Assembly (NCBI RefSeq): GCF_947581785.1
Contig: NZ_CANPVO010000006.1
Coordinates: 37,326 to 101,325, forward strand
Reading direction: 5' to 3'
DNA length: 64,000 nucleotides
DNA from: Candidatus Palauibacter polyketidifaciens
Lineage (GTDB): Bacteria > Gemmatimonadota > Gemmatimonadetes > Palauibacterales > Palauibacteraceae
Part shown: positions 16,741 through 54,749 of the stretch, one piece after another
Position numbering within the stretch: the stretch's first letter is position 1
How the letters are laid out: each line of letters starts with the position of its first letter
Translations under genes and position numbers: made by a program
Notes under the pieces: model-generated
What the model saw: the letters and a program-made list of their open reading frames with translations, nothing else
Databases searched by the model: none
Told to the model about the DNA's origin: nothing

Positions 16741-16846
16741 GCCGGCGGAGCCCGCCTCCCGCGCCGCCTTCCCGGGGGGGCCTTCGCTTGACACGTCGCA
16801 GCCGGATTGCTTGTTTTCCGCCACCGAATCCAATGGGGGGTCGCTC

Positions 16847-17395: not shown

Positions 17396-17428
17396 GGTCG
17401 GCCCGGCCGGCCGGCTGATCGCACCGTC

Positions 17429-34761: not shown

Positions 34762-35946
34762 CTACTTGGAGCCGTATTTTCCGATGGCCTCGAAGTCGAG
34801 GTCCACCACGAATTCGCCCGAATCCGCGTCGCGCTCGAAGATGATGAAACCGAGTTCGGCAAGCCTCGTGAGTTCCCGGAAGAACGTTCGTGAAGTTACG
34901 GCGCGATAAACGGTGTCGACGAAGGGTGAATCGATCAGCGCGTCGAGCGAGAGTCGCCGAGAGGGGCTCTCCGAAAAGGGATCGGCCGGCTCCGTTTCCT
35001 CAAGGAGGAAACCCAGGAGGCCATGCTCCCGCTCGTTGATGAGACGGCGACGCTTGCTCACTCGCTTGTCGCGCGCCCAAGTCAACGTTTGCCGGTAGAC
35101 CAGGCGGTTCAGCTTCGAGTTGATGAAGGAGTTGATTCCGCGCAGCTCGGCGTCGAAGCCACGCAACCCGAACTCCACGAAGCGCGTGACGTCGACCGGT
35201 TGCACCCTGCGGCATTCCTGCTGGCGCCTTTTGTAGAGGTCTCCGTTGCGGTAGAAATAGTTCGAGAGCCCGTAGAAACCGTGGACGTTGTATCCCCCTT
35301 CAAAGAGGATGGCTGCCTCGACCAGCCTCGACACGCGGCCGTTTCCGTCTCCGAACGGATGGATGGTCACCAGGAAGAAGTGGGCGAGCAGCGCTCGGAC
35401 CACCGGATGCTCGTTCCGTACGCGCCGAGAGTTGACGAAGACGACGAAGTCGTCCAGCAACTGCGGGAGCTCCTCGTGAGGTGCTCCCAGGTGGACTCCT
35501 CCCAAATCCGGCGTACCCACCTGCACGCCGTATGCTCGCAGCCGGCCGGGTACGTTGTTTCCTTCATCGGAGCCCCTGGTGAGCAATTCATGCATTCGGA
35601 GGATGTCCGCCACCGCCAGCGGTGCCTCGCCGGGTCCGAACCGTTCGCGAACCCAGTTCTGGGCGGCATCGGCATTCTCGATCTGTCGAGATTCCCTAGT
35701 TGTGGCGCTGGCTTCGGTTTCACGATCCAGCAGTTCGCGCACCTGCGCTTCCGACAGCGGGTTGCCCTCGAGGGCGGTCGTGCCACGGATCGTCCTGATG
35801 CGATTCAATCGGTCGAGCTGGTCCCTCCAATCCGGGGGCAGCAGAAGTTTCTCGACGGCCTTCCGACTCGCCTCGATTTCGATGAGAAGGCTAGTCAGGC
35901 CGGGGCCGTCGAGGCGGTATTCGAAGCTGAACGTCTGCCAATCCAT
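34762..35946 (-). CDS. fic: Fic-family protein (AMPylase-type) with N-terminal inhibitory motif and C-terminal winged-helix-like domain
   Basis: HPFGDGNGRVSR matches HxFx(D/E)GNGRxxR. TTALEGN matches the (S/T)xxxE(G/N) inhibitory helix motif. My spot GC count is about 60%, against 75-80% in the flanks. Confidence 0.9.
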   Translation of the reverse strand: MDWQTFSFEYRLDGPGLTSLLIEIEASRKAVEKLLLPPDWRDQLDRLNRIRTIRGTTALEGNPLSEAQVRELLDRETEASATTRESRQIENADAAQNWVRERFGPGEAPLAVADILRMHELLTRGSDEGNNVPGRLRAYGVQVGTPDLGGVHLGAPHEELPQLLDDFVVFVNSRRVRNEHPVVRALLAHFFLVTIHPFGDGNGRVSRLVEAAILFEGGYNVHGFYGLSNYFYRNGDLYKRRQQECRRVQPVDVTRFVEFGLRGFDAELRGINSFINSKLNRLVYRQTLTWARDKRVSKRRRLINEREHGLLGFLLEETEPADPFSESPSRRLSLDALIDSPFVDTVYRAVTSRTFFRELTRLAELGFIIFERDADSGEFVVDLDFEAIGKYGSK

Positions 35947-35951
35947 ATCTT

Positions 35952-35995
35952 ACGACACCTTTTATGACACCTTGTGTGACACCTTGTTTGACAGG
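35952..35995. repeat. three and a half tandem copies of a 12-bp unit (RTGACACCTTGT) abutting the fic start codon
   Basis: The copies are ACGACACCTTTT (35952-63), ATGACACCTTGT (35964-75), GTGACACCTTGT (35976-87) and a partial TTGACAGG (35988-95). They lie in an AT-rich 102-bp divergent intergenic region. Confidence 0.8.
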
Positions 35996-36048
35996 TATGT
36001 AACATCCATAAACTCTAATGATGATAGGCATATCCGACCTTCAGATCA

Positions 36049-37596
36049 ATGGATAGCATTCCTTACGTGACAGCTTGTACGACGGTGTTCACGACCGAAT
36101 CGGCGCACGCCCGAAAGGTTGTATTCGGGATATGCGCGGTTCTGCTCGCCGTGGGGATCGCGGCGTGCGGGGACGGGAGCACGGACCTTCCTCTGACGCA
36201 CGCTCCGAGGGCCGTCGGCGCGCTTCCCGACCTCGAACTTCCCGTGGGTGAGACGGCGCTGGTGGAGGTGACGGGCCTCTTCAGCGATGCGGACGGGGAT
36301 GTGCTTTCCTATGAGGTTCGGTCTTCGGCCCCCGACGTGGTCGCGGCGGAGGTGTCGGGCGGCACCGTGCGGCTGGTCGCCCTGGCGCGCGGGATGGCTA
36401 CGGTGACCGTCACGGCGCGCGATCCCCAAGGCCGGGCCGTCGCCCTCCGGTTCGAGGTCACCGTACCGAACGTGGCGCCGGTAACGATTGGCGCGATCCC
36501 CGATGTCGAACTTCGGGTCGGAAGTGCGGAGCTGCTCGCCGTATCGGGCTTCTTCTCCGATCCGGACGGCGACGCGCTACGCTACGAAGCCACGTCGTCG
36601 CAGCCGGACGTGGCCGGGATCGACGTCTCGGCGGACACCGTCACGGTAACCGCCCTCGCGGCGGGAACGTCGACGGTGACCGTCGCGGCGCGCGACCCTG
36701 GCGGGCTGGGCGCCGAACTGTCGTTCGCCGTGGAGGTCCGACCGGGCCGCAGGTTCGACATCGAGGTCCGCTTCGACACCACGGCTGCCGAGCCGTGGCG
36801 GGCCCCGGTCCTCGCGGCGGCGGAACTGTGGATGTCGGTGCTGGCCGATACGGAACTGCTCGAGGTTGCGGTCGACGACCGCATTGAATGTTACGGCGCG
36901 AGCACGGCGGAGCCGGTCGGCACCATCGATGACCTGATGGTTCTCGTCGAGTTCCGGGAGATCGACGGTCCGGGCCGCACGCTCGCCCAGGCCGGCGTGT
37001 GCCGCCTGCGCGAAGGGTCAATGCTGCCGGTCGCGAGCGTGGCGTTCTTCGATGTGGCGGACATCGACCGGCTCATCGACTCCGGCGACGCGGTGGAACT
37101 CGCGGTTCACGAGATCGCGCACGCGCTCGGATTCGGCCTGCTGTGGCGCCCTCTCGGTCTCCTCCGGGATCCCTCCCTGGGCGTGGGAGCGATCGACGCG
37201 CATTTCGTGGGTCCCGGGGCCATCGCCGCCTTCGACGCGGCGGGCGGCACGGACTACACGGGCGGGGCGAAGGTCCCCGTCGAGAACCGCGGCGGAGCCG
37301 GGAGCGCGAACCTCCATTGGCGGGGCTCCGTCCTCCGGGGGGAACTCATGAGGCCGCTCAACAGGATCGGAGTCCGGGAGGCCCTCAGCGCGGTCACGAT
37401 CCGGTCGCTGGCCGACCTGGGTTACGCAGTCGACGCGAGCCAGGCGGAGCCGTACACGCTCCCCGGCGTTGGCGCCGCGGACGAGAAACCCGGCCGCGTG
37501 GTCGACCTGGGCGACGATGTCCTCAGGGGGCCGGTGCAGGTCGTCGATTCGGCCGGCCGCGTCGTGCGCGTGCTCCGCGACCGTTCGCCGGAGTAG
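36049..37596 (+). CDS. lipoprotein with two tandem Ig-like domains and a leishmanolysin-like (M8) zinc-metalloprotease domain
   Basis: Lipobox LAVGIAAC. Two domains of about 90 aa are homologous (PDLELPVGETALVEVTGLFSDADGDVLSYEV... and PDVELRVGSAELLAVSGFFSDPDGDALRYEA...). HEIAHALGFG is HExxHxxGF. Confidence 0.7.
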   Translation: MDSIPYVTACTTVFTTESAHARKVVFGICAVLLAVGIAACGDGSTDLPLTHAPRAVGALPDLELPVGETALVEVTGLFSDADGDVLSYEVRSSAPDVVAAEVSGGTVRLVALARGMATVTVTARDPQGRAVALRFEVTVPNVAPVTIGAIPDVELRVGSAELLAVSGFFSDPDGDALRYEATSSQPDVAGIDVSADTVTVTALAAGTSTVTVAARDPGGLGAELSFAVEVRPGRRFDIEVRFDTTAAEPWRAPVLAAAELWMSVLADTELLEVAVDDRIECYGASTAEPVGTIDDLMVLVEFREIDGPGRTLAQAGVCRLREGSMLPVASVAFFDVADIDRLIDSGDAVELAVHEIAHALGFGLLWRPLGLLRDPSLGVGAIDAHFVGPGAIAAFDAAGGTDYTGGAKVPVENRGGAGSANLHWRGSVLRGELMRPLNRIGVREALSAVTIRSLADLGYAVDASQAEPYTLPGVGAADEKPGRVVDLGDDVLRGPVQVVDSAGRVVRVLRDRSPE

Positions 37597-37607
37597 GTTC
37601 CGTCCCG

Positions 37608-37637
37608 TTGACCGAACAAACCGCGGATTCCTATGCT
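37608..37637 (+). promoter_or_regulatory. candidate sigma-70-type promoter for the RND/P450/methyltransferase run
   Basis: TTGACC (37608-13), an 18-bp spacer, then TATGCT (37632-37), 38 nt upstream of the adaptor gene ATG. Consensus-based guess only. Confidence 0.3.
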
Positions 37638-37674
37638 CAAGCTGGCGCTCCTCGACTCCATGGGATAAGGCACA

Positions 37675-38895
37675 ATGCTGCGCAGATTGCTGTTCGGATC
37701 CAGTCTCAGGATCATCGCCGTGATCATCGTCGGTACGATTGCGGTCGCGGCACTAATGCTCTCGCTCGCCCCCGAACCGGAGAGCCAGGAGCCGCCCCCC
37801 CAGATCCCGTTTGCGCAAACGGCCGGCGTTGTGGCCGGATCGGGCGCGATACCCGTGTTCGGATCCGGCACCGTGCGGCCAAGCGAGGAGATCGATGTCG
37901 CACCCCAGGTGGGCGGCAAGGTCGTCTGGGTCAATCCGCGGTTCCAGAGCGGAGGGCGCGTCGAGGCGGGCCAGACGCTCTTCCGCATCGAAGAAGCCGA
38001 CTACGCGTACCGCGTACAGGTAGCGGAAGCGAACGTCGCGGCAAGCCGCGTCGCCTTCCTCGAGGAACAGGAACGGGCGAAGATCGCCAGCGCCCAGTAT
38101 GAACTGTACTCGGAGCGGCGCGAGACGGGCCCCCCGCCGTCGGAGGCGAGTCCGCTCACATTGAGGGAGCCTCAGCTGGAAGCGGCCAGCGCCGCGCTGA
38201 GCCGGGACGAAGCCCGGCTTGAGGAGGCGAGGCTTGCGCTCTCCAGGACCCAGGTCACCGCGCCGTTCGATGGCTTCGTGCGCGAGGAGTCCGTCGATGC
38301 GGGGCAGGTCGTGAACCCCGGGCAGCCCGTCGGACGCCTCTTCGCTTCGGAGGCGGTGGAGGTCGTCGTTCCCCTCTCCGACGCCGACGCCGCCCTGGTC
38401 CCCGGATTGTGGGGGCTCGAGGCAGGCGACGGAGCACGGGACGTAGCGGCCCGTGTGATCGCCCACTACGGGGAGGTGATGTACGCCTGGGAGGGTTACG
38501 TGGATCGGGGTGAGAGTTCCGTTGACGCGCAGACACGCACCATCGACGTGATCGTGCGCGTGCCGGACCCGTTCGACCCAAGCGCGCGGGCGGGCCCGTC
38601 CGCCGCGGTCGGGAGCGATCCTCCGTTGCTGGTCGGCAAGTTCGTGGAGGTGGAGATCGAGGGACTCTCACCGGAGGACTACTTCCGGATCCCGCGAGCG
38701 GCGCTGCAACCTGGCAACGAAATCTGGACGGTTGACCGCGACGGCGTCGTGAACATCGTTCCGGTTCAGGTGCTGCAACGCGCCAACGATGCAGTGTTCG
38801 TCACCGGTGCCCTGCGAGGCGGCCAGTCGGTAGTCACCGGTGGACTTCAGTTCGCCACCGAAGGGATGCGCGTCCAGACCGACCCGGCGCGATGA
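37675..38895 (+). CDS. efflux RND transporter periplasmic adaptor (membrane fusion protein)
   Basis: N-terminal TM segment. GTVRPSEEIDVAPQVGGKV and the coiled-coil region VAEANVAASRVAF...L..A...L....V.APFDG are HlyD/MFP-like. Confidence 0.9.
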   Translation: MLRRLLFGSSLRIIAVIIVGTIAVAALMLSLAPEPESQEPPPQIPFAQTAGVVAGSGAIPVFGSGTVRPSEEIDVAPQVGGKVVWVNPRFQSGGRVEAGQTLFRIEEADYAYRVQVAEANVAASRVAFLEEQERAKIASAQYELYSERRETGPPPSEASPLTLREPQLEAASAALSRDEARLEEARLALSRTQVTAPFDGFVREESVDAGQVVNPGQPVGRLFASEAVEVVVPLSDADAALVPGLWGLEAGDGARDVAARVIAHYGEVMYAWEGYVDRGESSVDAQTRTIDVIVRVPDPFDPSARAGPSAAVGSDPPLLVGKFVEVEIEGLSPEDYFRIPRAALQPGNEIWTVDRDGVVNIVPVQVLQRANDAVFVTGALRGGQSVVTGGLQFATEGMRVQTDPAR

Positions 38896-41800
38896 ATCCC
38901 GACGCGGGTCCCGAACCGGACGACCGCCGCGAGCGGTCCGGCCCGCTCGCCTACATGGCCAGCAACGGCATCGCGGCCAATCTCCTGATGATGGGCATCG
39001 TTGCGGCCGGACTCGTGGCCCTGACCGGCCTCGAGCGAGAAGCCTGGCCCATCACCCCCTTCTACCACATCGAAGTCTCGATGGCCTATCCCGGCGCCAC
39101 GCCGGAGGAGATCGAGGAGTCGATCATCGTCAAGATCGAGGACCAGGTCAGCGGGCTCGATGACGTGAGGGCTGTCAAGTCCCTGGCGGCTCCGGGCATT
39201 GCCTCCGTGCGGATCCAGATGGATTCCCGCACGGACATGGCTCGGGCCCTGGACGACATCGAATCCGCCGTCAATCGTGTCCAGTCCTTCCCGGCCGGAG
39301 CCGAACGTCCGCGTTTCCAGGAGATGGACAACCGCTTCAGCATGATGCGGCTCATCGTCCACGGCGACGTCTCCGAGCGCTCGCTGAAGGAACTGGCGCA
39401 TCGGATCGAGGACGACCTTGCCGCGCTACCCTCCGTCTCCCAGGTCGAGGTCAGCGGGGTCCGGAACTACGAGATCTCCATCGAGGTATCGCTTCACCGG
39501 CTCAGAGCCCTGGGACTCTCTCTCACCGACGTTGCCGGGGCGATCCGCCGCAGTTCGCTCGACCTGTCGGCCGGAAGCATCGACACGCGGGAATCCCAGG
39601 TTCGAGTGCGGACCCTCGGGCAGAACTACGACCAGCAGGACTTCGAGGAAATCGTCCTTCTCAGCGGCCGCGACGGCACGGTCGTGCGCCTCGGCGACAT
39701 TGCCGAGGTCCGCGACGGGTTCCAGGAGGCAGACCTGATCGTCCGCCATCAGGACCAGCCCGCCGTATTCGTCGAGGTTTACCGGGCCGGTGGCGAGCAG
39801 GTGATGGATGTGGCCACGACCGTCCGTCGGCACCTGGCGAACGAGGTGATCCCGGCCTTGCCGGACAGCGTGGGCATCACCCTGTGGAACGACGAGTCCC
39901 AGGCCTACGAGGAGCGCGCCGATCTTCTTCTGAAGAACGGATTTCTGGGTTTGTTGCTGGTGTTGGTCGCACTGAGCCTGTTTCTACAGGTTCGGCTTGC
40001 CCTGTGGGTCGCCGTGGGCCTCGCCGTTTCGGGTGTAGGCGCCCTCGCCGCCATGATGGCGTTCGACGTGGCGATCAACACCATCAGCCTCTTCTCCTTT
40101 GTCCTCGCCATTGGGATCGTCGTTGACGACGCCATCGTTGTGGCCGAGCACATTCAACACGAACGCAATCAGGGAACCCCCGGGGTCGCGGCCGCGATCC
40201 GCGGCGTCCGGCGGATCAAGGTGCCGTTGACGTTCGCCGTCCTCACCTCGGTGGTGGCTTTCGTCCCGTTGTTGTTCATCCCGGGCGGTGTCGGTGACGT
40301 GTGGCGGGCCCTGCCGATCATCATGATCGCCATGCTGCTGTTTTCGCTGGTGGAATCGCTGTTCGTCCTGCCGAACCACCTGTCCCACCTGCCCGGTCCG
40401 GAATGGGTGCCGGGCAATGCCTTCGACCGATTCTTCTCGCGACTCCAGAGTCGTGTCGACGCCCAATTGCAGCGGTTCATCCAGGGGCCCTTGGACCGGG
40501 CACTGCGGTTTGCCACGGCCCGGCCCGGGGTGACGATGACGGGGGCCGTTGCAATGCTCGTGCTGAGCATTTCCCTGTTGCCCGCGGGAATCGTCCCCAC
40601 CACGCTGGCCGACGACGTGGAGGGCGATATCGTGACGGTCGTGTTGGAGATGCCCGATGGGGCCACCGCTCCGAGAACGTACGAGGTCGCCCGGGAGCTG
40701 GAGGCCGCGGGCCACCGGGTCATCGAACAACTCTCTCGAAGCCGGCCCGCGGACGCGCCGCCGCTGCTAACCGGCGTCACCGTGACCGTCGGACTGGGAT
40801 CGAGAATCGAGGGCGGACTCAACCCGCAGCCCACCCTCAATCCGCAGGCCAATATCGCCACCATCGAGTTCAAGCTCCTCGGTGCGCAGCAGAGACGGAT
40901 CTCCACCGGAGAAGTCGTGCAGGCGTGGCGCGAGGAGGTGGGTGTGCTGCCCTACGTCCGCGGCATCACCTTCAGCGGCGAGATCTTCACCCTGGGGAAC
41001 CCGGTCGAGGTCGTACTGTCGCACCCGGACCCGGAGCGGCTCGCCGGGATCGCCGGCTCGGTGGTCGACGGACTCCGCAGCGTGAGAGGCGTCTACGACA
41101 TACGGTCGGATCACGCCCCGGGGATCCCGGAAGTTCAGCTGGAGTTGCGGCCCGAGGCGCGGACCCTCGGTCTCACCGTGCAGGAGTTGGCGGGACAGGC
41201 GAGGGCCGCGTTCTTCGGCGCGGAAGCCGTCCGGGTGCAGCGCGGCCGGGAAGAGGTACGAGTCTATGTTCGGCTGCCCGCGGAAGAACGAAACTCGATT
41301 ACCGATATCGAAGGCTACCTGCTCCGTACGCCGGGCGGGGACGAGGTGCCGATGGTCAGTGTGGCGTCGCTGGTCCCGGGCGTTTCGCCATCGGCCCTCC
41401 GGCGCAGGGACGGCCAGCGCGTCGTCACCGTCACCGCCGATGTGGACGCCTCGGTGATCTCAGGCGACGAAGCCAACGAGATCCTGGCCGGTTCGATCCT
41501 CGCGGACCTGGCCGCGGCGTACCCGGGCCTCACATACACGTTCGGGGGCGAGCAGCAGCAGCAGCTGGAGTCGATCGACGCGCTGTACCGCGGCTTCGCG
41601 GTCGCTCTGATCCTGATTTTCGCGCTCCTCGCCATCCCCCTCCGTTCATATACCAAGCCGTTCATCATCATGGCCGTCATCCCCTTCGGGTTCATCGGCG
41701 TGATCCTGGGCCACTGGATCCTGGGAGTAGCTCTGAGCGCCGTCTCCTTCATGGGGATCTTCGGTCTGAGCGGCGTGGTGGTGAACGATTCCCTGGTCAT

Positions 41801-42098
41801 GATCGACTTCATCGATCAGAAACTCCGGGAGGGCGTCCCGCCGCGAACCGCGATCATGGAGGGGGCAAAAGGGCGTTTTCGTCCGATCATGCTCACTTCC
41901 CTGACCACGTTCCTCGGCTTCACCCCCCTGATCCTGGAGCGCGCCATCCAGGCCCAATTCCTGATTCCGTTTGCCGCGTCACTCGGTTGCGGCATTCTCT
42001 TCATCACGGCCATACTCATGATGGTAGTTCCGGCGCTATGCACGTTGCATCTGCGCTTGATGCCGTCGCGGCGTCCTTCGATTCCGAACGCCGCGTAG
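38892..42098 (+). CDS. efflux RND transporter permease (AcrB/HAE-type, 1068 aa)
   Basis: ATGA overlap with the adaptor gene. Twelve-TM RND layout with two large periplasmic loops. GIVVDDAIVVAEHI and VVNDSLVMIDF are the conserved TM4/TM10 motifs. Confidence 0.9.
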   Translation: MNPDAGPEPDDRRERSGPLAYMASNGIAANLLMMGIVAAGLVALTGLEREAWPITPFYHIEVSMAYPGATPEEIEESIIVKIEDQVSGLDDVRAVKSLAAPGIASVRIQMDSRTDMARALDDIESAVNRVQSFPAGAERPRFQEMDNRFSMMRLIVHGDVSERSLKELAHRIEDDLAALPSVSQVEVSGVRNYEISIEVSLHRLRALGLSLTDVAGAIRRSSLDLSAGSIDTRESQVRVRTLGQNYDQQDFEEIVLLSGRDGTVVRLGDIAEVRDGFQEADLIVRHQDQPAVFVEVYRAGGEQVMDVATTVRRHLANEVIPALPDSVGITLWNDESQAYEERADLLLKNGFLGLLLVLVALSLFLQVRLALWVAVGLAVSGVGALAAMMAFDVAINTISLFSFVLAIGIVVDDAIVVAEHIQHERNQGTPGVAAAIRGVRRIKVPLTFAVLTSVVAFVPLLFIPGGVGDVWRALPIIMIAMLLFSLVESLFVLPNHLSHLPGPEWVPGNAFDRFFSRLQSRVDAQLQRFIQGPLDRALRFATARPGVTMTGAVAMLVLSISLLPAGIVPTTLADDVEGDIVTVVLEMPDGATAPRTYEVARELEAAGHRVIEQLSRSRPADAPPLLTGVTVTVGLGSRIEGGLNPQPTLNPQANIATIEFKLLGAQQRRISTGEVVQAWREEVGVLPYVRGITFSGEIFTLGNPVEVVLSHPDPERLAGIAGSVVDGLRSVRGVYDIRSDHAPGIPEVQLELRPEARTLGLTVQELAGQARAAFFGAEAVRVQRGREEVRVYVRLPAEERNSITDIEGYLLRTPGGDEVPMVSVASLVPGVSPSALRRRDGQRVVTVTADVDASVISGDEANEILAGSILADLAAAYPGLTYTFGGEQQQQLESIDALYRGFAVALILIFALLAIPLRSYTKPFIIMAVIPFGFIGVILGHWILGVALSAVSFMGIFGLSGVVVNDSLVMIDFIDQKLREGVPPRTAIMEGAKGRFRPIMLTSLTTFLGFTPLILERAIQAQFLIPFAASLGCGILFITAILMMVVPALCTLHLRLMPSRRPSIPNAA

Positions 42099-42132
42099 TG
42101 CACGTCGACCGCGGCAAGGCGAGAACCGACGA

Positions 42133-44160
42133 ATGACGGTGGAGAGTCTGAAGGTCGAATCCCTGAGCCTCGTCGACGAACTCATCCTGATGCTTCTCGA
42201 CGAGAAGGGAGGCTACTTCCATCAGGTCCCCGGCTGGCAACTGAACTGCGCCGTGGTCGGCGGGGTGCTGGCGGAACTCTCCTTCCGGTCGCGGCTCGAC
42301 TCGGACCTGACATCCCTGTACGTGGTGGACCGGGACGAAACGGGCGATCCCGTCCTGGATCCCATTCTGAAGGAGATCGCGGACGAACCGGTCCAACGCA
42401 CGGCCCGGTACTGGGTCGAACGGCTCGCCCCCCGCGCGGAGTCGGTCGTCGACCTGACCTTGGATCGCCTGGTTCAACGGGGGATCCTCCAACACCACGA
42501 CGGGGAATTCTGGACGCTGGCTCCCCCCGTCATGCATCGGCAGCAGTACGGGATGTTCGAGGAAGACGCGACCGACCAGTTCATCAAGGCGCGCATCGGC
42601 AACGTCATCTTCGCCGACGAGGTTCCCGAACCGAGAGACGTCGTCATCGTCTGCCTCGTCAACACCTGCGACGTCTTTCGCCTGATCTTCGAACTCGATG
42701 AAGCGGCGGAAGAGCGCATCAAGTGGATATGCCAGCTGGACCTGATCGGCCGGTCCATCGCCGCTGCGGTCTCCGAGAACCTCGTCGGCCCGATTCGCAG
42801 ACATGCTCCTCTCGCCAAGAAGATTCCGACGGTTTCGCTGACTAGGCTGCTGCGCAACCCGCATGTCCGAGACGGCAACCTGAACGCGCTCTTCGGAAGC
42901 CTCGCGGAGGAGTACGGTCCGGTGTTCCAGATCCGGCCTCCCTTCTCGGAGCGCATGATCTTCCTGGCCGGACTCGAGACGAATGAATGGATGCAGAAGC
43001 GCGGGCGCATGTACCTGAGAACCAGGGACTACTTCGCCGACTTCGAGAAGGTCTACGGCGCGGCCGGCGTTCTGCCCGCCCTTGACGGGACCGACCACTT
43101 CCGGCTTCGCAAGTTCCTGTCGCCGGCCTATTCCCGCACGAGGCTGGCGGGGCAGCTGGACGAGCTCTACAGCAGGGGGCGAGCGTACATGTCGACGCTG
43201 GCGGTCGGGGATTCGTACCGCGCCACGTCCATGAGCCGGGCAATGGTGAACGCCCAGCTATCGCCGCTGTTCATCGGCGTCGACACGCAGGATCTCATGG
43301 GCGACCTGATGGTCTATAAGGAGCGGGCCCTCAGCGTGCATATTGCCAGGGTCCTGCCCGAGTTCACGCTGCATACCCCGGGTATGAGACGTCGGGCGGC
43401 CGTCCTGGAGACGCTGATGAAGCGGATCTTGAGCGTCCATACTCCGGCCCAACGCGTGGACAGCCAACGGAACCTGGTGGACGACTACCTCAGCCTGCAT
43501 GCCAGCGACCCGCAGTTTCTCCCGGAGTCCAACCTGCTCTTCGCTTTTTCCGCGGCCCTGATTGCCAGCGTGTACCTCGGTGACACGTTCAGCCTCGTCG
43601 TCTACGCCATGGCGTCGCAGCCCGCGCTCTACGAGAGGATCCGCGCCGAAGCGGACGCGCTGTTTGCCAGCGGTGACCCCGAAAAAGAGGACTTCACCCC
43701 GGCCAACATCGACGTGACGCATCGCTTCCTCATGGAGTGCATGCGCATGTACCCGATCGTGCCCATGTCTGTTCGGAACGTGATGAATACCTGCACGGTC
43801 GAGAACTACGAGTTACCCCTGGGGGAACGGATCCACATCGCCATGACCGCCACGCACTACATGAGCGACGTCTTTCCCGAACCCCACAAGTTTGACATCG
43901 ACCGCTTCCTGCCGTCGCGCCGTGAGCATCATAGCCTCGGGTTCGCCCCGTACGGGCTGGGTACGCACAAGTGTCTCGGCACCCGCTGGATGGAGATGCA
44001 CCTGGCGGCCAACCTGTTGATGCTGGCGCACTACTTCACGATCGAGGTGTCGCCGGCGAAATACGCCCGGAAGCTCCGCTTCAATCCGGTTCCGTCGCTG
44101 AAGCCGAGCAAGAAGGTCAGGTTCCGCATTACCGAGCAGAGGCGGGAGCTGCCCGCCTGA
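42133..44160 (+). CDS. fusion protein: N-terminal GPP34/GOLPH3-family domain + C-terminal cytochrome P450
   Basis: Residues about 10-215 read LSLVDELILMLLDEKGGYF....LNCAVVGGVLAELSFRSRL....TGDPVLDPILKEIA...RTARYWVERL....LDRLVQRGIL, which is the GPP34 pattern. The C-terminal region has ExxR (ECMR) and the heme loop FAPYGLGTHKCLG (Cys codon 43972-74). Confidence 0.85.
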   Translation: MTVESLKVESLSLVDELILMLLDEKGGYFHQVPGWQLNCAVVGGVLAELSFRSRLDSDLTSLYVVDRDETGDPVLDPILKEIADEPVQRTARYWVERLAPRAESVVDLTLDRLVQRGILQHHDGEFWTLAPPVMHRQQYGMFEEDATDQFIKARIGNVIFADEVPEPRDVVIVCLVNTCDVFRLIFELDEAAEERIKWICQLDLIGRSIAAAVSENLVGPIRRHAPLAKKIPTVSLTRLLRNPHVRDGNLNALFGSLAEEYGPVFQIRPPFSERMIFLAGLETNEWMQKRGRMYLRTRDYFADFEKVYGAAGVLPALDGTDHFRLRKFLSPAYSRTRLAGQLDELYSRGRAYMSTLAVGDSYRATSMSRAMVNAQLSPLFIGVDTQDLMGDLMVYKERALSVHIARVLPEFTLHTPGMRRRAAVLETLMKRILSVHTPAQRVDSQRNLVDDYLSLHASDPQFLPESNLLFAFSAALIASVYLGDTFSLVVYAMASQPALYERIRAEADALFASGDPEKEDFTPANIDVTHRFLMECMRMYPIVPMSVRNVMNTCTVENYELPLGERIHIAMTATHYMSDVFPEPHKFDIDRFLPSRREHHSLGFAPYGLGTHKCLGTRWMEMHLAANLLMLAHYFTIEVSPAKYARKLRFNPVPSLKPSKKVRFRITEQRRELPA

Positions 44161-44171
44161 GCCCCCCCGAT

Positions 44172-45203
44172 TTGCGACTGGGCAAACTGTCGAAAGCGCT
44201 GCGGGATGCGCACCCGGGATCGGGCGTCGCGCGTCGAGTCCGGCACTTTGACGGCTGGCTTGAGCGGGCGGCATCGGAGGCTGCCGGCGCCGGCACCTAC
44301 GACCACGCGGAAACGGTCAGGGACTACTACGAGCTGTGCAACGGTTTCATGGTGTACGGCTGGGGCGAATCCCTGCATTTTGCGCCCCTCACGCCCGACG
44401 AAAGCCTGGAGGAGTCCAAGGTCCGGCACCAGCGGGCGATGATCTCCAGGTTGAAGCTGGAACAGGGCATGAAGGTGGTCGACGTCGGTTGTGGAATCGG
44501 CGGCCCCATGCGCCGAGTCGCCCGTGAGGCGGGCGTCAGGGTCGTGGGAATCAACATCAATGACATCCAGCTCGCGGAGGCGAAGAAGTTGAACGCCGAG
44601 GCGGGGCTGGAGCACATGACCGATTTCAGGAAGTGCAGCTTCGAGGATATGAGCGCCATCGAGGCCGACACCTTCGATGGGGGTTACGCGATAGAGTCGA
44701 CGTGCCATGCGCAGGACAAGCGACGCGCGTTCGCGGAGATATTCCGCATACTGAAGCCGGGCGCCCTGTTCTGGGGTCAGGAAATGTGCCTGACGGACCG
44801 GTTCGATCCCGGGAATGCCCGGCACCGGACCATCAAGCGGGAGCTCATGCGCGGTATTGCGCTGCACGACATCGCCACGTTCGGGGAAGTGAACCGCGCT
44901 CTCGAAGGGGCGGGATTCCAGGTCATCGAGGGGAGTGATTGGGAGGTCCGGGAAGGACCCGCCACCCCGTGGTATCAACCCATGGAGAGTCGGCACGGGA
45001 CGTTGGGGACTGCGGTGCGCAGGCTTCCCCGGGGCCGCAAGGCGTTCATCGCGGGGTCGAAGTTGGCCGAGGTACTGCGGTTCTTTCCGAGGGGCTCGGC
45101 GGAGGTGGTTCGGCTCCTTGATCGAACCGCGGAGGCTTACGTCGAGGGCGGCAGGACGGGCATCTTCACGCCCCTGTACTGTTTCCTGGCCCGCAAGCTC
45201 TAG
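44172..45203 (+). CDS. sterol C-24 methyltransferase-like (ERG6/SMT family) SAM-dependent methyltransferase
   Basis: YYELCNGFMVYGWGESLHFAP, VVDVGCGIGGP, YAIESTCHAQ, LKPGALF, PWYQPM and FTPLYCFLARK align block-for-block with what I recall of yeast ERG6 (YYNVVTDFYEYGWGSSFHF, LDVGCGVGGP, YAIEATCHAP, IPWYYPL, LFTPMMLFVARK). The start is TTG 44172, or CTG 44157 overlapping the P450 stop. Confidence 0.85.
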   Translation: MRLGKLSKALRDAHPGSGVARRVRHFDGWLERAASEAAGAGTYDHAETVRDYYELCNGFMVYGWGESLHFAPLTPDESLEESKVRHQRAMISRLKLEQGMKVVDVGCGIGGPMRRVAREAGVRVVGININDIQLAEAKKLNAEAGLEHMTDFRKCSFEDMSAIEADTFDGGYAIESTCHAQDKRRAFAEIFRILKPGALFWGQEMCLTDRFDPGNARHRTIKRELMRGIALHDIATFGEVNRALEGAGFQVIEGSDWEVREGPATPWYQPMESRHGTLGTAVRRLPRGRKAFIAGSKLAEVLRFFPRGSAEVVRLLDRTAEAYVEGGRTGIFTPLYCFLARKL

Positions 45204-45216
45204 CAGCCAGGGGCTG

Positions 45217-46260
45217 CTAGTCGGCGTTGCGGTCCGGGCTTCGCGGCGCCGGCGCCGGGTCCGGATAGAACTGTCGGCAGTGTCGGCGGTACTTCCCGAT
45301 GGGGCCGTCCGTCCGGCAAAGCCGGGGGGGAGACCGGTAGCGCTTCCTGTCCCATATCACGATGTCCTGCAGTACGAACCGCCTCTCCTCGCGGAGGATG
45401 AAGAAATTCAGCAGCCGGTGGCGCAGCGGCACGGGTAGAAAGCCCAGACCCGATATGAACCGCCCCGGTTTCCGGATCTCCCGCACCTGGTTGACCATCG
45501 TCAACTCCACGAATTCGCCGTCGACGGGCGTTGTGAGCACCCACATGCGCGACCTCACGCCGACCGACTTCTCGTGAATCTCGACGAAGGAGTAGCCGAG
45601 TCCGTGGACGTGCGTGACGACCGAGACTTCGGAATGAATGTCCACCAGACCAAGGATCCGGCGAACCGCCTTGAAGTCGAAACAGCTCCTCAGGTAGGCG
45701 CCGTCGGTCGAAAAGTCGGTCGGCTCCACATCGTGGTAGCCATGCGTGTACTCCAGGTGTTCCACGTCGACCGAGTTCTCCGTCGTCTCCTGGGGATGCC
45801 CTCGGAACCGCAGGATCGTGGAGCGCAAACCGGTCCACTCCGCGCCGGCGGGTGGCTCATCCGGCAGGTGCCATTGAGGGCCTCGGCCACCGCTCCCCCA
45901 CCAGGCGAAGATCATGCCGAGGATCTCCCGGGTCTCGTAGAGCTTCAGCTTCGCGGCCTTCGGAGGCGGAGCATTGGGCGTGGCCACGCACTGGCCGGTC
46001 GTGTCGAACTCGAACCCGTGAAACGGACAGACGAGGCAGCCGTCGCGCACCAGACCGCCCGTGGTCGGTCCCATATGCGAGCCCAGGTGCGGACAGAAGG
46101 CGTCCGCCACGCAGATGCGGCCCTCGTCGTCGGCCCAGGCGACGATCTCCTCGCCCATCCACGTCTTCTCGATGAGCTTCGCGCGCTCGATGGACGTGCG
46201 GCGTCCGATGAAATACCAGCCTTCGGGAAACGGCGGCAGCGCATCGCTGTACGTAGCCAT
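45217..46260 (-). CDS. Rieske [2Fe-2S] non-heme-iron oxygenase, Neverland/DAF-36- or KshA/SdmA-like
   Basis: CPHLGSHMGPTTGGLVRDGCLVCPFHGFEF is the Rieske centre. ENSVDVEHLEYTH matches the mononuclear iron motif Ex3Dx2Hx4H. Confidence 0.85.
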   Translation of the reverse strand: MATYSDALPPFPEGWYFIGRRTSIERAKLIEKTWMGEEIVAWADDEGRICVADAFCPHLGSHMGPTTGGLVRDGCLVCPFHGFEFDTTGQCVATPNAPPPKAAKLKLYETREILGMIFAWWGSGGRGPQWHLPDEPPAGAEWTGLRSTILRFRGHPQETTENSVDVEHLEYTHGYHDVEPTDFSTDGAYLRSCFDFKAVRRILGLVDIHSEVSVVTHVHGLGYSFVEIHEKSVGVRSRMWVLTTPVDGEFVELTMVNQVREIRKPGRFISGLGFLPVPLRHRLLNFFILREERRFVLQDIVIWDRKRYRSPPRLCRTDGPIGKYRRHCRQFYPDPAPAPRSPDRNAD

Positions 46261-46362
46261 GCGGGCGAACTTGGTTTCGGTCCCGCTGGCGCGTCAACTA
46301 GTGTACACTCGTGCGGTGGCGGCCGGCCGGAAACGGATCTTGAGAAAGCGAGGACTACGGTG

Positions 46363-48969
46363 ATGACTCTGGACTCTGCGCCGCGCGTCTCGGTTCTCAT
46401 GCTCTTCGCCGCGATGGCCGCCGGCCTGCCGGCGAACGGCTCCGGCCAGACCGCCGCCGAGGTTCCGCGCTTCGAGATCGCGTCGTCGCCGATCGAACTC
46501 ACGGGACCCGTCCGTCCCGGCGAGTACCTGGGCGTGACCGGACCCCGGTCCGCGTGGCTCGGCCTCGAGACCGGGGAGGCGGAGCTGTGGGTCCACCCCC
46601 TCAAGGTCGGAAACCGGTTTCGGCTCGGCTTCTCGACCCCGGCCTACGGCGCGCCGATTCCCGGTAGCGCCGTCGCGCGCACGGTGCATGTCCGGCCCGA
46701 ACTGACGACGATCGCCTACAGCCACGCGGCCTTTCAGGTGCGCCAGCACATCCTTGCGCCCGCCGAACTCCCCGGCCTCCTGGTTCTGCTCGAGGTGGAC
46801 AGCCCCGAACCACTCGAGATCATCGCCGAGTTCGAGCCGGTGCTGAACTACATGTGGCCGGGTTCGCTGGGGGGGCAGTACGCCTACTGGGACGGCGGCC
46901 GGCGCGCCTTCGTGCTGTCCGAGAGCCTGCAGGAGACGAACGCCGTCGTCGGGTCGCCGTGGGCCGTCAACTCGGTCGAACACCCGGCGCATCAACTGGG
47001 CGAAGCGCCGCGCACCATGGTGATCCCGGTCGAGCCGGAACGCGCCCGACGGGAGTTCATCCCCATCGCCGTAGCGGGCGGCACCATGCCCCGCGAGGAG
47101 GTCTTCGCCAGCTACGATCGGCTGATCGCCGAGGCCCACTCGCTGTACGGCGCGAAACGGGCATGGGCCGACTCGGTGCTCGCCTCCACCGTCTCCATCG
47201 AGTCGCCGGATCCACAGCTCGACCTCGCCCTCGAGTGGGCGAAGATCAACCTGGAGGAGCAGCGCGTCTGCAATCCCGACCTCGGCTGCGGGTTCGTCGC
47301 GGGCTGGGGCCTGTCGCGCAACGGAACCCGTCCCGGATTCGGATGGTTCTTCGGCGGCGACGCGGCGCAGACGACCTTCGCCATGGATGTGCTCGGGCAG
47401 TGGGGGGTGGTGGCGGAGGAACTCGCCTTTCTCGCGAGATACCAGCGTGAAGACGGGAAGATCACGCACGAAATCTCTCAGGCGGCCGCGCGCATCCCGT
47501 GGTTCGAGGTGTATCCGTACGCCTACTACCACGCGGACACCACGCCCTACTGGATGGTCGCGCTGTACGAATACTGGCGGGCGAGCGGGGACGACGAACT
47601 GCTGCGGGAGCTGTGGCCGGCCTACCGGCGCGCGTGGGAATGGTGCCTCGGCGCCGAGACCGACGGCGACGGAATCATCGAAAACACGGTGGGCGGGCTC
47701 GCAGCGGTCGAGGTCGGGGGCCTCGGGGCGGCGCTCCACCAGGACGTCTACCTGGCAGGGGTTTGGACCGCGGCCCTCGAGGGGACCGCGGCGCTGGCGG
47801 AGCGCATGGGCGAACCCGGGATGGCGAATCGGGCTCGGGAGATGGCTCCCCGCGCGCGGAAGACGCTGAACGACGCGTACTGGCTCGAGGAGGCGGGGCA
47901 CCATGCCTTCGGGATCCTCGCCGATGGCGGCACCAACGACAATCTGACCGTGTGGCCCGCGACGGCGGCCGCGTTCGGCCTGTTCGACGAGGCGCGCGGG
48001 CGATCGACCCTCGCCCGGCTCGCGAGCGACCGGATCTCGTCGGACTGGGGCGCCCACATGCTCTCGACGGAGAGCGAACTGTATCACCCGCTCCAGTACA
48101 ACATGGGTTCGGTGTGGCCCTTCGTGACGGCGTACGTGTCGTGGGCCCAGTACCGGTACCGGCGTCCATGGGCGGGCTTCCACCTCGTGGACGCGGTGAA
48201 GCAGATGACCTTCGACTGGAGCCTAGGACGCCATCCGGAGTTGCTGTCCGGAACGTTCTACCAGCCCCTCGACCAGACCGTCCCGCACCAGTTCTTCGCG
48301 ACTTCGGCCCTGGTGACACCGTTACTGCGCGGCGTCATCGGCTGGGAGCCCGATGCGCCGCTGGACCGCGTGCGCCTCGCCCCGCAACTCCCGCCGGATT
48401 GGCCGGCCGTGACGGTGAGACGGCTCCGAGCCGGGGAAACGGCGACGGACGTGGAGATCCGACAACGGTGGACGGCCGAAGGCGGGGAGCGACGGACGAC
48501 GCTCACGACCACGGGGCCTGCGCTGACATTCGCCTTCGTACCCGACGTGCCGGCGGGCGCGCGGGACGTGTCCATCGGCGTGAACGGGGCAGTCACCGAA
48601 CTCACCGAGGATGGAACGGTGGAGGTGACGCTGGGCGAGACCGTCGCCGCCGGCGACCGCGCGGAAATCGTCGTGACGTGGGGCGGCGGGCTCGCGATCG
48701 CGCCGCCCCGGATCGACTTGGAGCCCGGTCAAGTGAGCAGCGGCCTGCGCATCCTCGACTTCAACGCAGATCCGGATGGCTGGCTTCTCGAAGTGGAGGG
48801 ACTGGCGGGTCGGAGCTACGACCTCGGACTCTTCGGCGCCACGGTCGAAGCTGACGTCGTGCAAGGGGCCGCAACGACCGCTCTGGCCAACCCCGCGACC
48901 GTACGTATTGCGTTTCCTCCGGACACTGCGGAACGCACGACAGCTGTGGTTCGTTTCACGACCCCGTAG
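46363..48969 (+). CDS. secreted (alpha/alpha)6-barrel glycoside hydrolase, amylo-alpha-1,6-glucosidase (GDE_C)-like
   Basis: Trimmed to ATG 46363 (GTG 46360 is also possible), with GAAAGCGAGGA upstream. It has a signal peptide. GFGWFFGGDAAQTTFAM resembles the PWF..WFGRD motif of GDE_C-type enzymes. Confidence 0.65.
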   Translation: MTLDSAPRVSVLMLFAAMAAGLPANGSGQTAAEVPRFEIASSPIELTGPVRPGEYLGVTGPRSAWLGLETGEAELWVHPLKVGNRFRLGFSTPAYGAPIPGSAVARTVHVRPELTTIAYSHAAFQVRQHILAPAELPGLLVLLEVDSPEPLEIIAEFEPVLNYMWPGSLGGQYAYWDGGRRAFVLSESLQETNAVVGSPWAVNSVEHPAHQLGEAPRTMVIPVEPERARREFIPIAVAGGTMPREEVFASYDRLIAEAHSLYGAKRAWADSVLASTVSIESPDPQLDLALEWAKINLEEQRVCNPDLGCGFVAGWGLSRNGTRPGFGWFFGGDAAQTTFAMDVLGQWGVVAEELAFLARYQREDGKITHEISQAAARIPWFEVYPYAYYHADTTPYWMVALYEYWRASGDDELLRELWPAYRRAWEWCLGAETDGDGIIENTVGGLAAVEVGGLGAALHQDVYLAGVWTAALEGTAALAERMGEPGMANRAREMAPRARKTLNDAYWLEEAGHHAFGILADGGTNDNLTVWPATAAAFGLFDEARGRSTLARLASDRISSDWGAHMLSTESELYHPLQYNMGSVWPFVTAYVSWAQYRYRRPWAGFHLVDAVKQMTFDWSLGRHPELLSGTFYQPLDQTVPHQFFATSALVTPLLRGVIGWEPDAPLDRVRLAPQLPPDWPAVTVRRLRAGETATDVEIRQRWTAEGGERRTTLTTTGPALTFAFVPDVPAGARDVSIGVNGAVTELTEDGTVEVTLGETVAAGDRAEIVVTWGGGLAIAPPRIDLEPGQVSSGLRILDFNADPDGWLLEVEGLAGRSYDLGLFGATVEADVVQGAATTALANPATVRIAFPPDTAERTTAVVRFTTP

Positions 48970-49234
48970 GCGAGAGTCTGCTGCCTGCCGCTCCGCAACC
49001 CTTGAATATCGTCAGATTATCGTTGATTTACGGTTGCCTGTCGCCCTAAAGTCGCATACCATCAGCTATCGTATGAGTGTGAGTGGGGATTGGGCGGTGT
49101 CCACGTGATCGCAAGGCTCGTGGCGACCTCCTCGGCTCGGCATAGCGCCGTCCAGTCCCCCTCCGCGACCGCATTCCGGACTCCAGTCGATTCGGGCGTC
49201 CGGGAATCGACGGTCCGGCGGCTCCCGGTCGGCG

Positions 49235-54044: not shown

Positions 54045-54749
54045 TCAGTCTGCCGCCGGGTTCCGGAAAGGAAGCCGCAGCGCCAGGAAGAGCCCGATGG
54101 CCACCGGTTCGAGGAGCGGAATGTACCACGGCCAGTTCGGGAAAACGTCCAGTATCGATGCCGTCGGCGGCTTGTCGATAAGATACAGGTAGTTGGACCC
54201 GAGTACGCGGTTGATGGGATACACCGCGATGGCGTACACGTTCAGCAGGCCGAACGCCAGCCAGGGATCCCGCGCCTTCGGCCGGTAGTCCTCCACCGTC
54301 ACCGCCCACACGCCCGCGATGACGGCGATTCCGTGCGACGCCATCGTCTCGTAGAAGGCGAAATGGAGAACGCCGTGGGACGCATCGGGCGTCAGCACGG
54401 CCTGAACGGCCCCCGCGACGCCGAAGAAGTACATGAGCCGAAGGGTCCAGAGGTGCCGCGTCCACAGCCCGTACACCGTCATCCAGGCCATCGCCGCGCA
54501 CAGGTGCAGCGGGAGGTCGTTCTGCAGGGTCCATATCCCGACCGAAGCTTTCCACATGTGCCTGAGGCCGAGGAGAAGGAGGATCGCGGCGCCCATGGCG
54601 AAGCGGAGGCGGCGGCGCCGATCCTCGTCGCCAGCCATGCCTGCCCGGATCAGACAGACTCCGATCGCGACCAACACGCCCATCGTCACGAGATGGACCG
54701 GGCCGAAGAGATCCAGCGGTACCGACTCCGTCCCGAAGAACCCGCTCAT
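54045..54749 (-). CDS. YwaF/TMEM164-like integral membrane protein (TIGR02206-type)
   Basis: Seven hydrophobic segments. LPLHLCAAMAW...FFGVAGAVQAVLTPD resembles the YwaF family. Tentative. Confidence 0.55.
   Translation of the reverse strand: MSGFFGTESVPLDLFGPVHLVTMGVLVAIGVCLIRAGMAGDEDRRRRLRFAMGAAILLLLGLRHMWKASVGIWTLQNDLPLHLCAAMAWMTVYGLWTRHLWTLRLMYFFGVAGAVQAVLTPDASHGVLHFAFYETMASHGIAVIAGVWAVTVEDYRPKARDPWLAFGLLNVYAIAVYPINRVLGSNYLYLIDKPPTASILDVFPNWPWYIPLLEPVAIGLFLALRLPFRNPAAD

Follow-up and report, generated by a model that had tools for sequence, protein, structure and literature searches.

Positions 37608-46260 of a stretch of 64,000 nucleotides from Candidatus Palauibacter polyketidifaciens (Gemmatimonadota; assembly GCF_947581785.1, contig NZ_CANPVO010000006.1), the whole of which is referred to below as the window, hold what is probably one copy of a mobile gene cassette devoted to the tailoring and export of a sterol-type lipid, a function that is read from genomic context. 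The core of this cassette appears to comprise a type-B homologue of sterol methyltransferase (SMT), a fusion of a GPP34 domain with a cytochrome P450, a KshA-class Rieske oxygenase and an RND-superfamily transporter, represented here by an AcrB-type pump and its adaptor. The corresponding genes are arranged as follows:

37675-38895, plus strand: RND periplasmic adaptor (membrane-fusion protein), 406 aa, with HlyD_3, HlyD_D23 and TIGR01730 matches
38892-42098, plus strand: AcrB-type (HAE1-like) RND inner-membrane transporter, 1068 aa, with an ACR_tran match
42133-44160, plus strand: fusion of GPP34 and cytochrome P450, 675 aa, of GPP34_L architecture, with Pfam GPP34 and p450 matches
44172-45203, plus strand: type-B SMT homologue, 343 aa, TTG start, with Sterol_MT_C and class I methyltransferase domains
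45217-46260, minus strand: KshA-class Rieske non-haem iron oxygenase, 347 aa, convergent with the SMT gene, with Rieske and KshA_C matches

Everything that a first-pass annotation of this DNA had described here, i.e. four same-strand genes and a convergent Rieske gene, was retrieved at the same positions by open reading frame (ORF) listing and profile searches, and with the same spacings: a 4-nt ATGA overlap between adaptor and pump, then 34 nt and 11 nt along the run, and 13 nt between the SMT and Rieske genes. An independent gene caller applied to the source contig returned the identical 343-aa SMT call, and a consensus scan located no terminator-like site inside the adaptor-to-SMT run. The source contig, ROBB21-1_SAMN13943212_METAG-scaffold_34 (340 kb), on which the fusion protein of the window recurs without a single residue change, presumably belongs, judging by its name, to the demosponge metagenome of Robbins et al. 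2021, and its nearest genomic relatives are metagenome-assembled genomes (MAGs) named Candidatus Palauibacter and Gemmatimonadota/Longimicrobiales.

The cassette was delineated from the best 80 relatives of the window SMT among 185,579 species-representative genomes. These share 70-93% identity with it and are spread over at least 10 phyla, including Gemmatimonadota, Acidobacteriota (Holophagales, Thermoanaerobaculia, Vicinamibacteraceae, Bryobacterales), Latescibacterota, Rhodothermales, Nitrospirales, Nitrospinota, Dehalococcoidia, Chloroflexota, Actinomycetes, Gammaproteobacteria, Opitutales and Binatia. All interpretable isolate labels of these genomes (SB06xx, COS, RHO, IRC, APA, CAR, Plut, jk18x, p16x) are, judging by the names, those of sponge and coral metagenomes, and the cassette is, as far as sampled, restricted to sponge- and coral-dwelling bacteria. 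The flanks of the SMT loci (±10 kb) were compared by tblastn and all-against-all clustering, and the following genes recurred in the 63 loci with full flanks:

GPP34-P450 fusion: 62 of 63 loci
Rieske oxygenase: 58 of 63 loci
AcrB-type pump: 37 of 63 loci
HAE3/MMPL-type RND transporter in place of the AcrB-type pump: 17 of 63 loci
Any RND-superfamily transporter: 54 of 63 loci
Flavin adenine dinucleotide (FAD) amine-oxidase-like gene, absent from the window: 27 of 63 loci

Gene order and orientation vary between phyla, and the shuffled neighbourhood is conserved in Gemmatimonadota, Acidobacteriota, Latescibacterota, Rhodothermales, Opitutales, Gammaproteobacteria, Binatia, Nitrospirales and Dehalococcoidia. 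That the set is kept together despite its reshuffled order is a classical signature of functional coupling, and the suggestion that they form a single unit is borne out by their joint presence in at least 10 phyla.

The FAD gene, present in 34 of the 80 loci and usually adjoining the Rieske gene, encodes an amine-oxidase/protoporphyrinogen-oxidase-like protein of 462 aa (representative at L070:6111-7499) with weak similarity to HpnE; our guess would be a sterol double-bond reductase or desaturase. Several loci (L024, L034-L038, L045, L049, L056, L074, L075, L369, L372-L375, L378, L380, L400, L402) contain a second, divergent GPP34-P450 paralogue, 29-43% identical to the window fusion, and both paralogues are co-resident in some genomes. 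Because this second paralogue comes with its own versions of the pump (~70%), the Rieske protein (~58%) and the FAD oxidoreductase, at least two cassette lineages can be distinguished by sequence comparison. Composite proteins were also observed: a 477-aa SMT homologue (P0068) is annotated with a KshA_C domain, and a 645-aa protein of Acidimicrobiia (P0400) has a C-terminal half 38% identical to the window Rieske oxygenase. Both may be fusions or miscalls of adjacent cassette genes. The N-terminal 300 residues of P0400 match no Pfam family and contain no detectable GPP34, so that its interpretation as a GPP34-Rieske fusion was rejected.

The linkage was also examined from the side of the transporter, in a reciprocal test in which pump relatives from JGI metagenomes were checked for adjoining cassette genes. 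Cassette genes adjoined 20 of the 25 usable loci of relatives with at least 66% identity, four of the five exceptions having almost no flank, and none of the 21 loci of relatives with at most 56% identity, despite the usual arrangement of outer-membrane factor, adaptor and pump in the latter. The more distant relatives came mostly from other marine metagenomes, and the closer ones from sponge metagenomes wherever the record was recognised, namely those of Petrosia ficiformis, Sarcotragus foetidus and Aplysina aerophoba (sources according to the supplement of PMC10070321). This pump clade is thus specifically tied to the cassette enzymes.

Horizontal transfer of the cassette, proposed from the outset, can be regarded as established by sequence comparison, on the basis of cross-phylum nucleotide identity, a cassette exchange between congeners, mosaic identities and cross-locus GC, and not of spot GC counts. 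Over its 3.2 kb, the pump gene of the window shares 90% nucleotide identity with those of Acidobacteria and Thermoanaerobaculia, 88% with those of Rhodothermales and Bryobacterales and 84% with that of Latescibacterota, to be compared with 77% for the flanking gene argD between the window and another order of the same phylum, Gemmatimonadota. In a congeneric Candidatus Palauibacter (L027, positions 1-19000), the chromosomal site corresponding to window 34762-50389 is the same and its flanks are conserved (amino-acid identities of 95% for argD, 90% for GH116 and 91% for Fic, with the M8 protease beside Fic), and it is occupied by a different, rearranged variant of the cassette (74% DNA identity for the pump and 73% for the fusion; order adaptor-pump-SMT-fusion-Rieske, with a second fusion gene upstream), which looks like a cassette replacement at a fixed site. 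Identities are moreover mosaic within the cassette, as in the Acidobacteria locus L009 (90% for pump and SMT, 71% for the fusion). Over 74 loci, cassette GC ranges from 54.5 to 68.1% and flank GC from 50.6 to 69.9%, the cassette being 4-6 points poorer in GC than its flanks where the host is GC-rich and 8-9 points richer where host GC is low, i.e. drawn to ~60-64% irrespective of host GC.

The contrast in composition initially reported inside the window (55-58% GC in some cassette genes against 75-80% in housekeeping genes) was not found, although a small dip is real: whole-gene GC is 63.0-65.3% for the pump, fusion, SMT and Rieske genes and 67.9% for the adaptor gene, for a window median of ~69%. 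As the GC at third codon positions (GC3) of the cassette, 0.81-0.85, falls inside the window range of 0.76-0.93, window-internal GC was dropped as weak evidence of transfer. The most deviant composition in the window is that of a Fic-domain gene (34762-35946, minus strand; 61.4% GC, GC3 0.76).

The connection to sterols comes from the genes that adjoin the cassette in other lineages. In Nitrospirales loci, a fusion of squalene monooxygenase and oxidosqualene cyclase (SMO-OSC, with the DCTAE motif) and a CYP51 (with AGQHTS) are found at most 10 kb from the cassette SMT, and in loci fetched with the cyclase as query, a GPP34-P450 fusion 59-68% identical to that of the window lies at most 8 kb from the cyclase in Nitrospirales, Binatia, Thermodesulfobacteriota, Gammaproteobacteria and Opitutales. 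SMO-OSC is a single fused ORF of ~1050-1220 residues in Nitrospirales and Gemmatimonadota symbionts of sponges and corals (L042:2181-5621; L036:121-3579; L050:4360-8022; also L199 and L182), consistent with the listing of ERG1 and ERG7 under one gene ID (Brown et al. 2023, PMC10070321), and the DNA around its DCTAE motif is nearly identical across phyla. Cyclase relatives, numbering more than 567 in one scan and 521 in another, are highly similar across sponge-symbiont phyla, in agreement with the description of cyclase-CYP51-reductase clusters, their transfer and SMT enrichment in sponge symbionts, where 115 of 537 MAGs from Ircinia had cyclase clusters (Kelly et al. 2022, PMC9531527). A further tie is provided by locus L048 (JAAXIB010000027), whose SMT, a 75% identical orthologue of the window SMT, is the assayed 'Nitrospira coral reef 2 of 2' (gene 2682229270, 35.6% identical to ERG6; PMC10070321). 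Between the '1 of 2' and '2 of 2' SMTs of this locus stand Rieske, outer-membrane barrel and FAD oxidoreductase genes, with the fusion on the other side of '2 of 2'; the supplementary table of sterol-gene homologues given for that MAG in PMC10070321 lists none of these neighbours, and the main text of the paper mentions no Rieske protein, P450 or RND pump. The sterol-like substrate originally put forward is thereby made plausible by the Sterol_MT_C domain together with the adjacency to SMO-OSC/CYP51/SdmAB clusters in Nitrospirales and others.

The window itself encodes no cyclase, squalene epoxidase or CYP51 within its 64 kb, according to a motif scan and to Pfam scans of the other genes, which agrees with the first reading of this DNA for cyclase and epoxidase, nor does it hold the CSG set (ERG24-CYP51-LSS, i.e. 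cyclase, CYP51 and C-14 reductase). The wider genome collection was scanned for the cyclase three times, twice with protein guidance and once by DNA pattern. Among the matches listed, a Longimicrobiales cyclase query found seven Gemmatimonadota assemblies at 84-100% identity and then matches of at most 78%. Protein-guided and DNA-pattern scans together yielded at least nine Gemmatimonadota assemblies with a cyclase, at whose loci a type-A SMT alone is nearby, and none of these nine is among the 25 cassette-bearing Gemmatimonadota assemblies, 10 of them complete chromosomes, again among the matches listed. Because no cyclase was seen in the window or in these related carriers, the window lineage probably lacks one and would act on a sterol acquired from the host or from neighbouring cells, which fits the earlier wording of a lipid made elsewhere or scavenged.

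The SMT homologue matches Sterol_MT_C (PF08498) with 48.2 bits (cut-off 21.7) over residues 288-342, as well as Methyltransf_11/25/31 and CMAS, and its Region II motif DxGxGxxGP reads DVGCGIGGP. Two SMT subfamilies are represented at these loci: type A, with GWGxSFHF and ~40% identity to ERG6, and type B, that of the window, with GWGESLHF and ~35% identity. In type B, Region I reads FMVYGWGESLHF instead of FYEYGWGxSFHF. A recent preprint reports 25 residues conserved in all functional SMTs, F89 being kept by every one, and places residues 81 and 249 within 5 Å of the sterol side chain (Brown & Welander 2025). Numbered on an ERG6 reference sequence that reproduces the preprint's 84GWGxxFHF91, type B has H90 and E195 and retains 23 of these 25 residues, so that neither the Region I motif nor the complete residue set is conserved. 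F89 is replaced by Leu in 62 of 62 members and T78 by Ser or Asn in 61 of 62 (Gly in the remaining one), while residue 81 is Met in 62 of 62 and residue 249 Ile in 61 of 62. Given its Leu89 and the retention of F89 in every functional SMT, we infer that the L048 orthologue was among the inactive SMTs, and type B was thus probably inactive on desmosterol and 24-methylenecholesterol in the published assays; we found no published statement naming which of the tested SMTs were inactive. The original 'ERG6-type' label consequently holds at the family level, for what is a divergent subfamily with invariant active-site changes.

The fusion protein combines GPP34 (residues 13-214, 103 bits) and p450 (residues ~245-670, 116 bits) domains in Pfam, both of which are present in all 120 homologues listed, with an ExxR motif (ECMR) and the haem-ligand motif FAPYGLGTHKCLG. 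Its P450 part has Methylococcus CYP51 as best solved match (73 bits); it was nevertheless rejected as a CYP51, because its helix I reads LGDTFS and not AGQHTS, and because it is only 22% identical to a co-resident symbiont CYP51 in which AGQHTS is present. By hydropathy, no N-terminal hydrophobic or signal segment was found, and an AlphaFold2 model built on a 40-orthologue alignment was too poor for a fold search (mean pLDDT 43.6, pTM 0.30). With an N-terminal GPP34 and a C-terminal P450 on one polypeptide from a sponge-metagenome contig, the protein belongs to GPP34_L, a group of 656 proteins described as monophyletic, expressed and confined to the symbionts of sponges, with members in 92.6% of the genomes of symbiotic Gemmatimonadota (Ferreira et al. 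2025, PMC11706023). The main text of that study mentions no sterols, methyltransferases or RND pumps.

The Rieske protein matches Rieske with 59 bits and KshA_C with 77 bits over the whole domain, and carries the CxH...CxxH and DxxHxxxxH motifs, which all members of its class share. The first-pass label 'Neverland-like' goes further than these matches allow. KshA is its best solved match (82 bits), over residues 10-173, i.e. the N-terminal half only, and no KshB-type reductase was detected near the gene. An SdmA identity was rejected (NF052579, 32.4 bits for a cut-off of 600; 22% identity to the SdmA of the Nitrospirales cluster), and in Nitrospirales the SdmA-type Rieske protein co-exists with an orthologue of the window protein. 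An exhaustive search of representative genomes retrieved 7643 relatives, of which 10 sampled clusters bore no informative names, and close orthologues are named only 'Rieske 2Fe-2S domain-containing protein'.

The adaptor scores 161 bits on TIGR01730 (cut-off 94.9), has an N-terminal anchor at residues 4-35 by hydropathy and is 89-95% identical in the closest relatives. The pump, with a full-length ACR_tran match (525 bits, residues 27-1049), a hydropathy pattern in keeping with 12 membrane helices and two large periplasmic loops and an overlapping partner adaptor gene, is an HAE1-type member, and a divergent one because curated NCBIfam subfamily cut-offs are not reached (RND_permease_2, 419 bits for 1250). 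Its amino-acid identity across phyla is 82-95%, and its best solved relatives are multidrug pumps (233 bits). It was rejected as an HpnN/BstA transporter, with 20 and 18 bits on HpnN models (cut-offs 1100 and 752) and no BstA match (NCBIfam NF052374, TIGR03480 and NF045600). An outer-membrane factor stands alongside the pump in 12 loci. In the window, an outer-membrane efflux protein (OEP, 106 bits) is encoded at 29208-30515 on the minus strand, 7 kb 5' of the adaptor gene and on the opposite strand; it could conceivably be the absent outer-membrane partner of the pump.

The HAE3/MMPL-type transporters, which replace the AcrB-type pump in Nitrospirales, Binatia and Dehalococcoidia and stand directly beside the cassette in L070 and L078, form two families, both with sterol-sensing-domain matches and weak HpnN matches (115 bits). 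In 14-15 loci, HAE3 is accompanied by a periplasmic TPR protein and an outer-membrane beta-barrel protein (representatives of the RND, TPR and barrel genes at L036:5068-7362, L070:11109-13586 and L058:2276-3043, minus strand, and L069:7793-8713, plus strand). The TPR protein was tried as a BstC-like partner and rejected, since neither solved structures nor NCBIfam models gave a significant match.

Taken together, a route can be proposed in which a sterol or closely related triterpenoid residing in the cytoplasmic membrane would be oxidised or desaturated by the Rieske oxygenase and by the P450, which GPP34 would keep at the membrane or lipid. The SMT would then C-methylate a side-chain double bond unlike those of desmosterol and 24-methylenecholesterol, and the RND transporter would move the product or the substrate from the inner membrane toward the outer membrane or the surroundings. 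Where the cassette sits beside a de novo sterol pathway, as in Nitrospirales and several further lineages, it would tailor a self-made sterol.

Several observations weigh against this proposal. The functions of all cassette proteins, including the role proposed for GPP34, are predictions from genomic context. Type B deviates at F89 and T78, both kept by all functional SMTs, so that a sterol is maybe not its substrate, a concern that its probable inactivity on desmosterol and 24-methylenecholesterol, deduced as above, reinforces. The pump is a generic HAE1-like transporter with no detectable relation to HpnN or BstA, the adaptor stands beside it in about half of the AcrB-type loci (it is absent at L007 and L017, for example), and no redox partners are encoded in the cassette. 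Finally, the absence of a cyclase from the window lineage, as judged from the matches listed, is probable, not proven.

These points feed an alternative that we hold to be possible though rather unlikely, namely that the substrate of the cassette is a non-sterol lipid or a secondary metabolite of the host or its neighbours (squalene, another isoprenoid olefin or a sponge terpenoid), handled by a detoxification line made of P450 and Rieske oxidation, methylation and RND efflux. SMT-like enzymes of Botryococcus, which methylate squalene and botryococcene, offer a precedent. The likeness of the pump to multidrug exporters, the deviation of the SMT at the sterol-contacting residues 81, 89 and 249, its probable inactivity on two sterols in vitro as deduced from the preprint, and the many carriers seemingly devoid of a cyclase (among the matches listed; PMC9531527 compared with PMC11706023) all speak for such a line. 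Sterol-type substrates are favoured over it by the repeated adjacency to SMO-OSC/CYP51/ERG24/SdmAB clusters, by the Sterol_MT_C domain and the functional-SMT residues that type B keeps, by the steroid-acting nearest solved relatives of both oxygenases (CYP51 and KshA), and by the replacement of the pump elsewhere by HAE3 transporters with sterol-sensing-domain matches.

More doubtful is the view that the fusion is a secreted effector with unrelated neighbours. GPP34 proteins have been proposed to be secreted, to bind host phosphatidylinositol-4-phosphate (PI4P) and to block phagosome maturation (Ferreira et al. 2025, PMC11706023), an idea in line with the PI4P-binding nature of GPP34 in eukaryotes, with the confinement of the family to sponge and coral symbionts and with its expression in Aplysina aerophoba (PMC11706023). 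The fusion however lacks an N-terminal hydrophobic or signal segment, and its haem-ligand and ExxR motifs are those of a working P450, an enzyme that must acquire its haem in the cytoplasm and requires redox partners. The fusion is also flanked by SMT, Rieske and RND genes in 57-62 of the 63 loci across phyla and found near cyclase clusters, and the flank analysis of PMC11706023 covered the short GPP34 form only, not the long one.

A role of the genes in steroid degradation, in which the Rieske protein would hydroxylate the ring in the manner of KshA and the P450 would oxidise the side chain, is very unlikely. KshA is indeed the best solved match of the Rieske protein, whose KshA_C domain is fully covered; that match is nonetheless limited to 82 bits in the N-terminal half, the conserved neighbours include no KstD, Hsa, thiolase or acyl-CoA genes, and the clusters that the cassette adjoins are biosynthetic. 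We know of no place for a C-methyltransferase in steroid catabolism. Lastly, an ordinary multidrug efflux operon lying by chance beside three unrelated enzyme genes is scarcely credible, even with a pump and adaptor that score only as generic RND components and an adaptor that is not always present, given the recurrence of the linkage in many phyla with shuffled order, the outcome of the reciprocal pump test (20/25 against 0/21) and the cross-phylum nucleotide identity that the pump gene shares with the cassette.

The sterol-tailoring reading can be extended, in a form that is speculative and improbable as it stands, to alkylation by the type-B SMT of a position other than C-24, the leading candidate being C-26 of delta-25 sterols of the codisterol or clerosterol type; the cassette, present in most bacterial symbionts on this reading, would then remodel and export sterols made by host or symbionts, with GPP34 as a lipid-targeting device. 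Bacterial SMTs alkylate C-24, and the enzyme of C-26 methylation, which matters for the 26-methylstigmastane biomarker, has been stated to be unknown (Brown et al. 2023, PMC10070321), and the type-A partner SMT of Nitrospirales makes (epi)codisterol, a proposed 26-SMT substrate (PMC10070321). The restriction to sponge and coral symbionts, the invariant changes at residues 81, 89 and 249 and the probable inactivity on delta-24(25) and delta-24(28) substrates are consistent with this extension. If true, C-26 methylation would lead to aplysterol and to the precursors of 26-methylstigmastane, and bacteria would account for part of the 'demosponge' sterol signature that serves as the oldest biomarker of animals.

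Two further features were noted around the cassette genes:

37608-37637, plus strand: promoter-like site, TTGACC and TATGCT separated by an 18 nt spacer, a consensus match 38 nt 5' of the adaptor start
45191-45231, no strand assigned: hairpin whose stem includes the stop codons of the SMT and convergent Rieske genes, from folding energy

A consensus scan gave four promoter-like sites in the region for 1.1 expected, by match to the consensus alone. The hairpin (-27.3 kcal/mol, z = -4.4) is a possible bidirectional terminator, and the stretch that forms it is an indel region, missing from the closest relatives and not conserved. The flanks are unrelated to the cassette, with a Fic protein and a leishmanolysin-like protease with Ig domains upstream, and a GH116-like hydrolase followed by arginine/lysine-biosynthesis-type genes downstream; Pfam scans assigned the remaining window genes to housekeeping and transport. 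Immediately 5' of the cassette, several Gemmatimonadota encode large secreted proteins in which bacterial Ig, cadherin and PKD repeats are combined with a leishmanolysin-like protease domain (window 36049-37596; L007:1117-4494); these may be host-interaction proteins. At 54045-54749 (minus strand), a 234-aa protein matches TMEM164 (173 bits), a family known mainly from eukaryotic membrane acyltransferases, and may represent a further eukaryote-like lipid gene of this symbiont.

The novelty lies in the physical and evolutionary linkage of the fusion, SMT, Rieske oxygenase, FAD oxidoreductase and dedicated RND transporter as a mobile cassette, of which we found no description in the literature. 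The claim of novelty made at first annotation stands for this linkage and not for all of its parts, GPP34_L (PMC11706023) being known and the SMT subfamily already assayed (PMC10070321). Separate observations on sponge microbiomes, i.e. the enrichment and transfer of sterol genes and SMTs on the one hand and a symbiont-exclusive GPP34-P450 on the other, are joined in one physical unit, which newly ties a dedicated transporter and two further enzymes to sterols. It provides a concrete alternative to GPP34_L as a secreted anti-phagocytosis effector, as well as candidate partners and likely substrates for an SMT subfamily that probably failed standard assays. With five to six genes, the origin of unusual 'sponge' sterols, including the 26-methylating enzyme behind a Neoproterozoic animal biomarker, becomes testable. 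A recent inter-phylum transfer of a lipid-remodelling cassette (84-90% nucleotide identity) inside one animal-associated community is documented as well. The region as a whole is of interest to sponge-symbiosis biology and to the sterane biomarker debate.

Compared with known systems, the window SMT shares fold, C-terminal domain and DxGxGxxGP with eukaryotic ERG6/SMT1/SMT2 and bacterial type-A SMTs, and differs from them in Region I and in the Ile at residue 249. KshA, SdmA and Neverland/DAF-36 have the Rieske cluster and mononuclear-iron motifs in common with the window Rieske protein, in which the KshA_C domain is full-length, whereas similarity to KshA itself is confined to the N-terminal half. 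HpnN, for hopanoids, and BstA of BstABC, for sterols in Methylococcus, are likewise RND-superfamily transporters encoded with triterpenoid enzymes; the window pump is by contrast AcrB-type with an adaptor, and BstB/BstC equivalents were not identified. The arrangement of HAE3, TPR and barrel genes in other loci is reminiscent of BstABC, to which no sequence match was found. GPP34_L (PMC11706023) has an architecture identical to that of the window protein, as homologues of one family, but where it was proposed to be a secreted anti-phagocytosis effector, the cassette neighbourhood points to an intracellular lipid-tailoring enzyme. The closest parallel is offered by the steroid clusters of sponge symbionts (ERG24-CYP51-LSS with SdmAB and SMT; PMC9531527, PMC10070321), which share hosts and phyla with the cassette, show the same pattern of purifying selection and horizontal transfer, likewise include an SMT homologue and physically adjoin it in Nitrospirales and others. 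The window cassette differs from them in having no cyclase, CYP51, ERG24 or SdmAB and in an SMT of a separate subfamily with changed active-site residues (~35% identical to ERG6, against ~40% for type A), and it brings a dedicated RND transporter as well as a GPP34-P450, a second Rieske protein and an FAD oxidoreductase, three genes that had not been recognised there as sterol genes.

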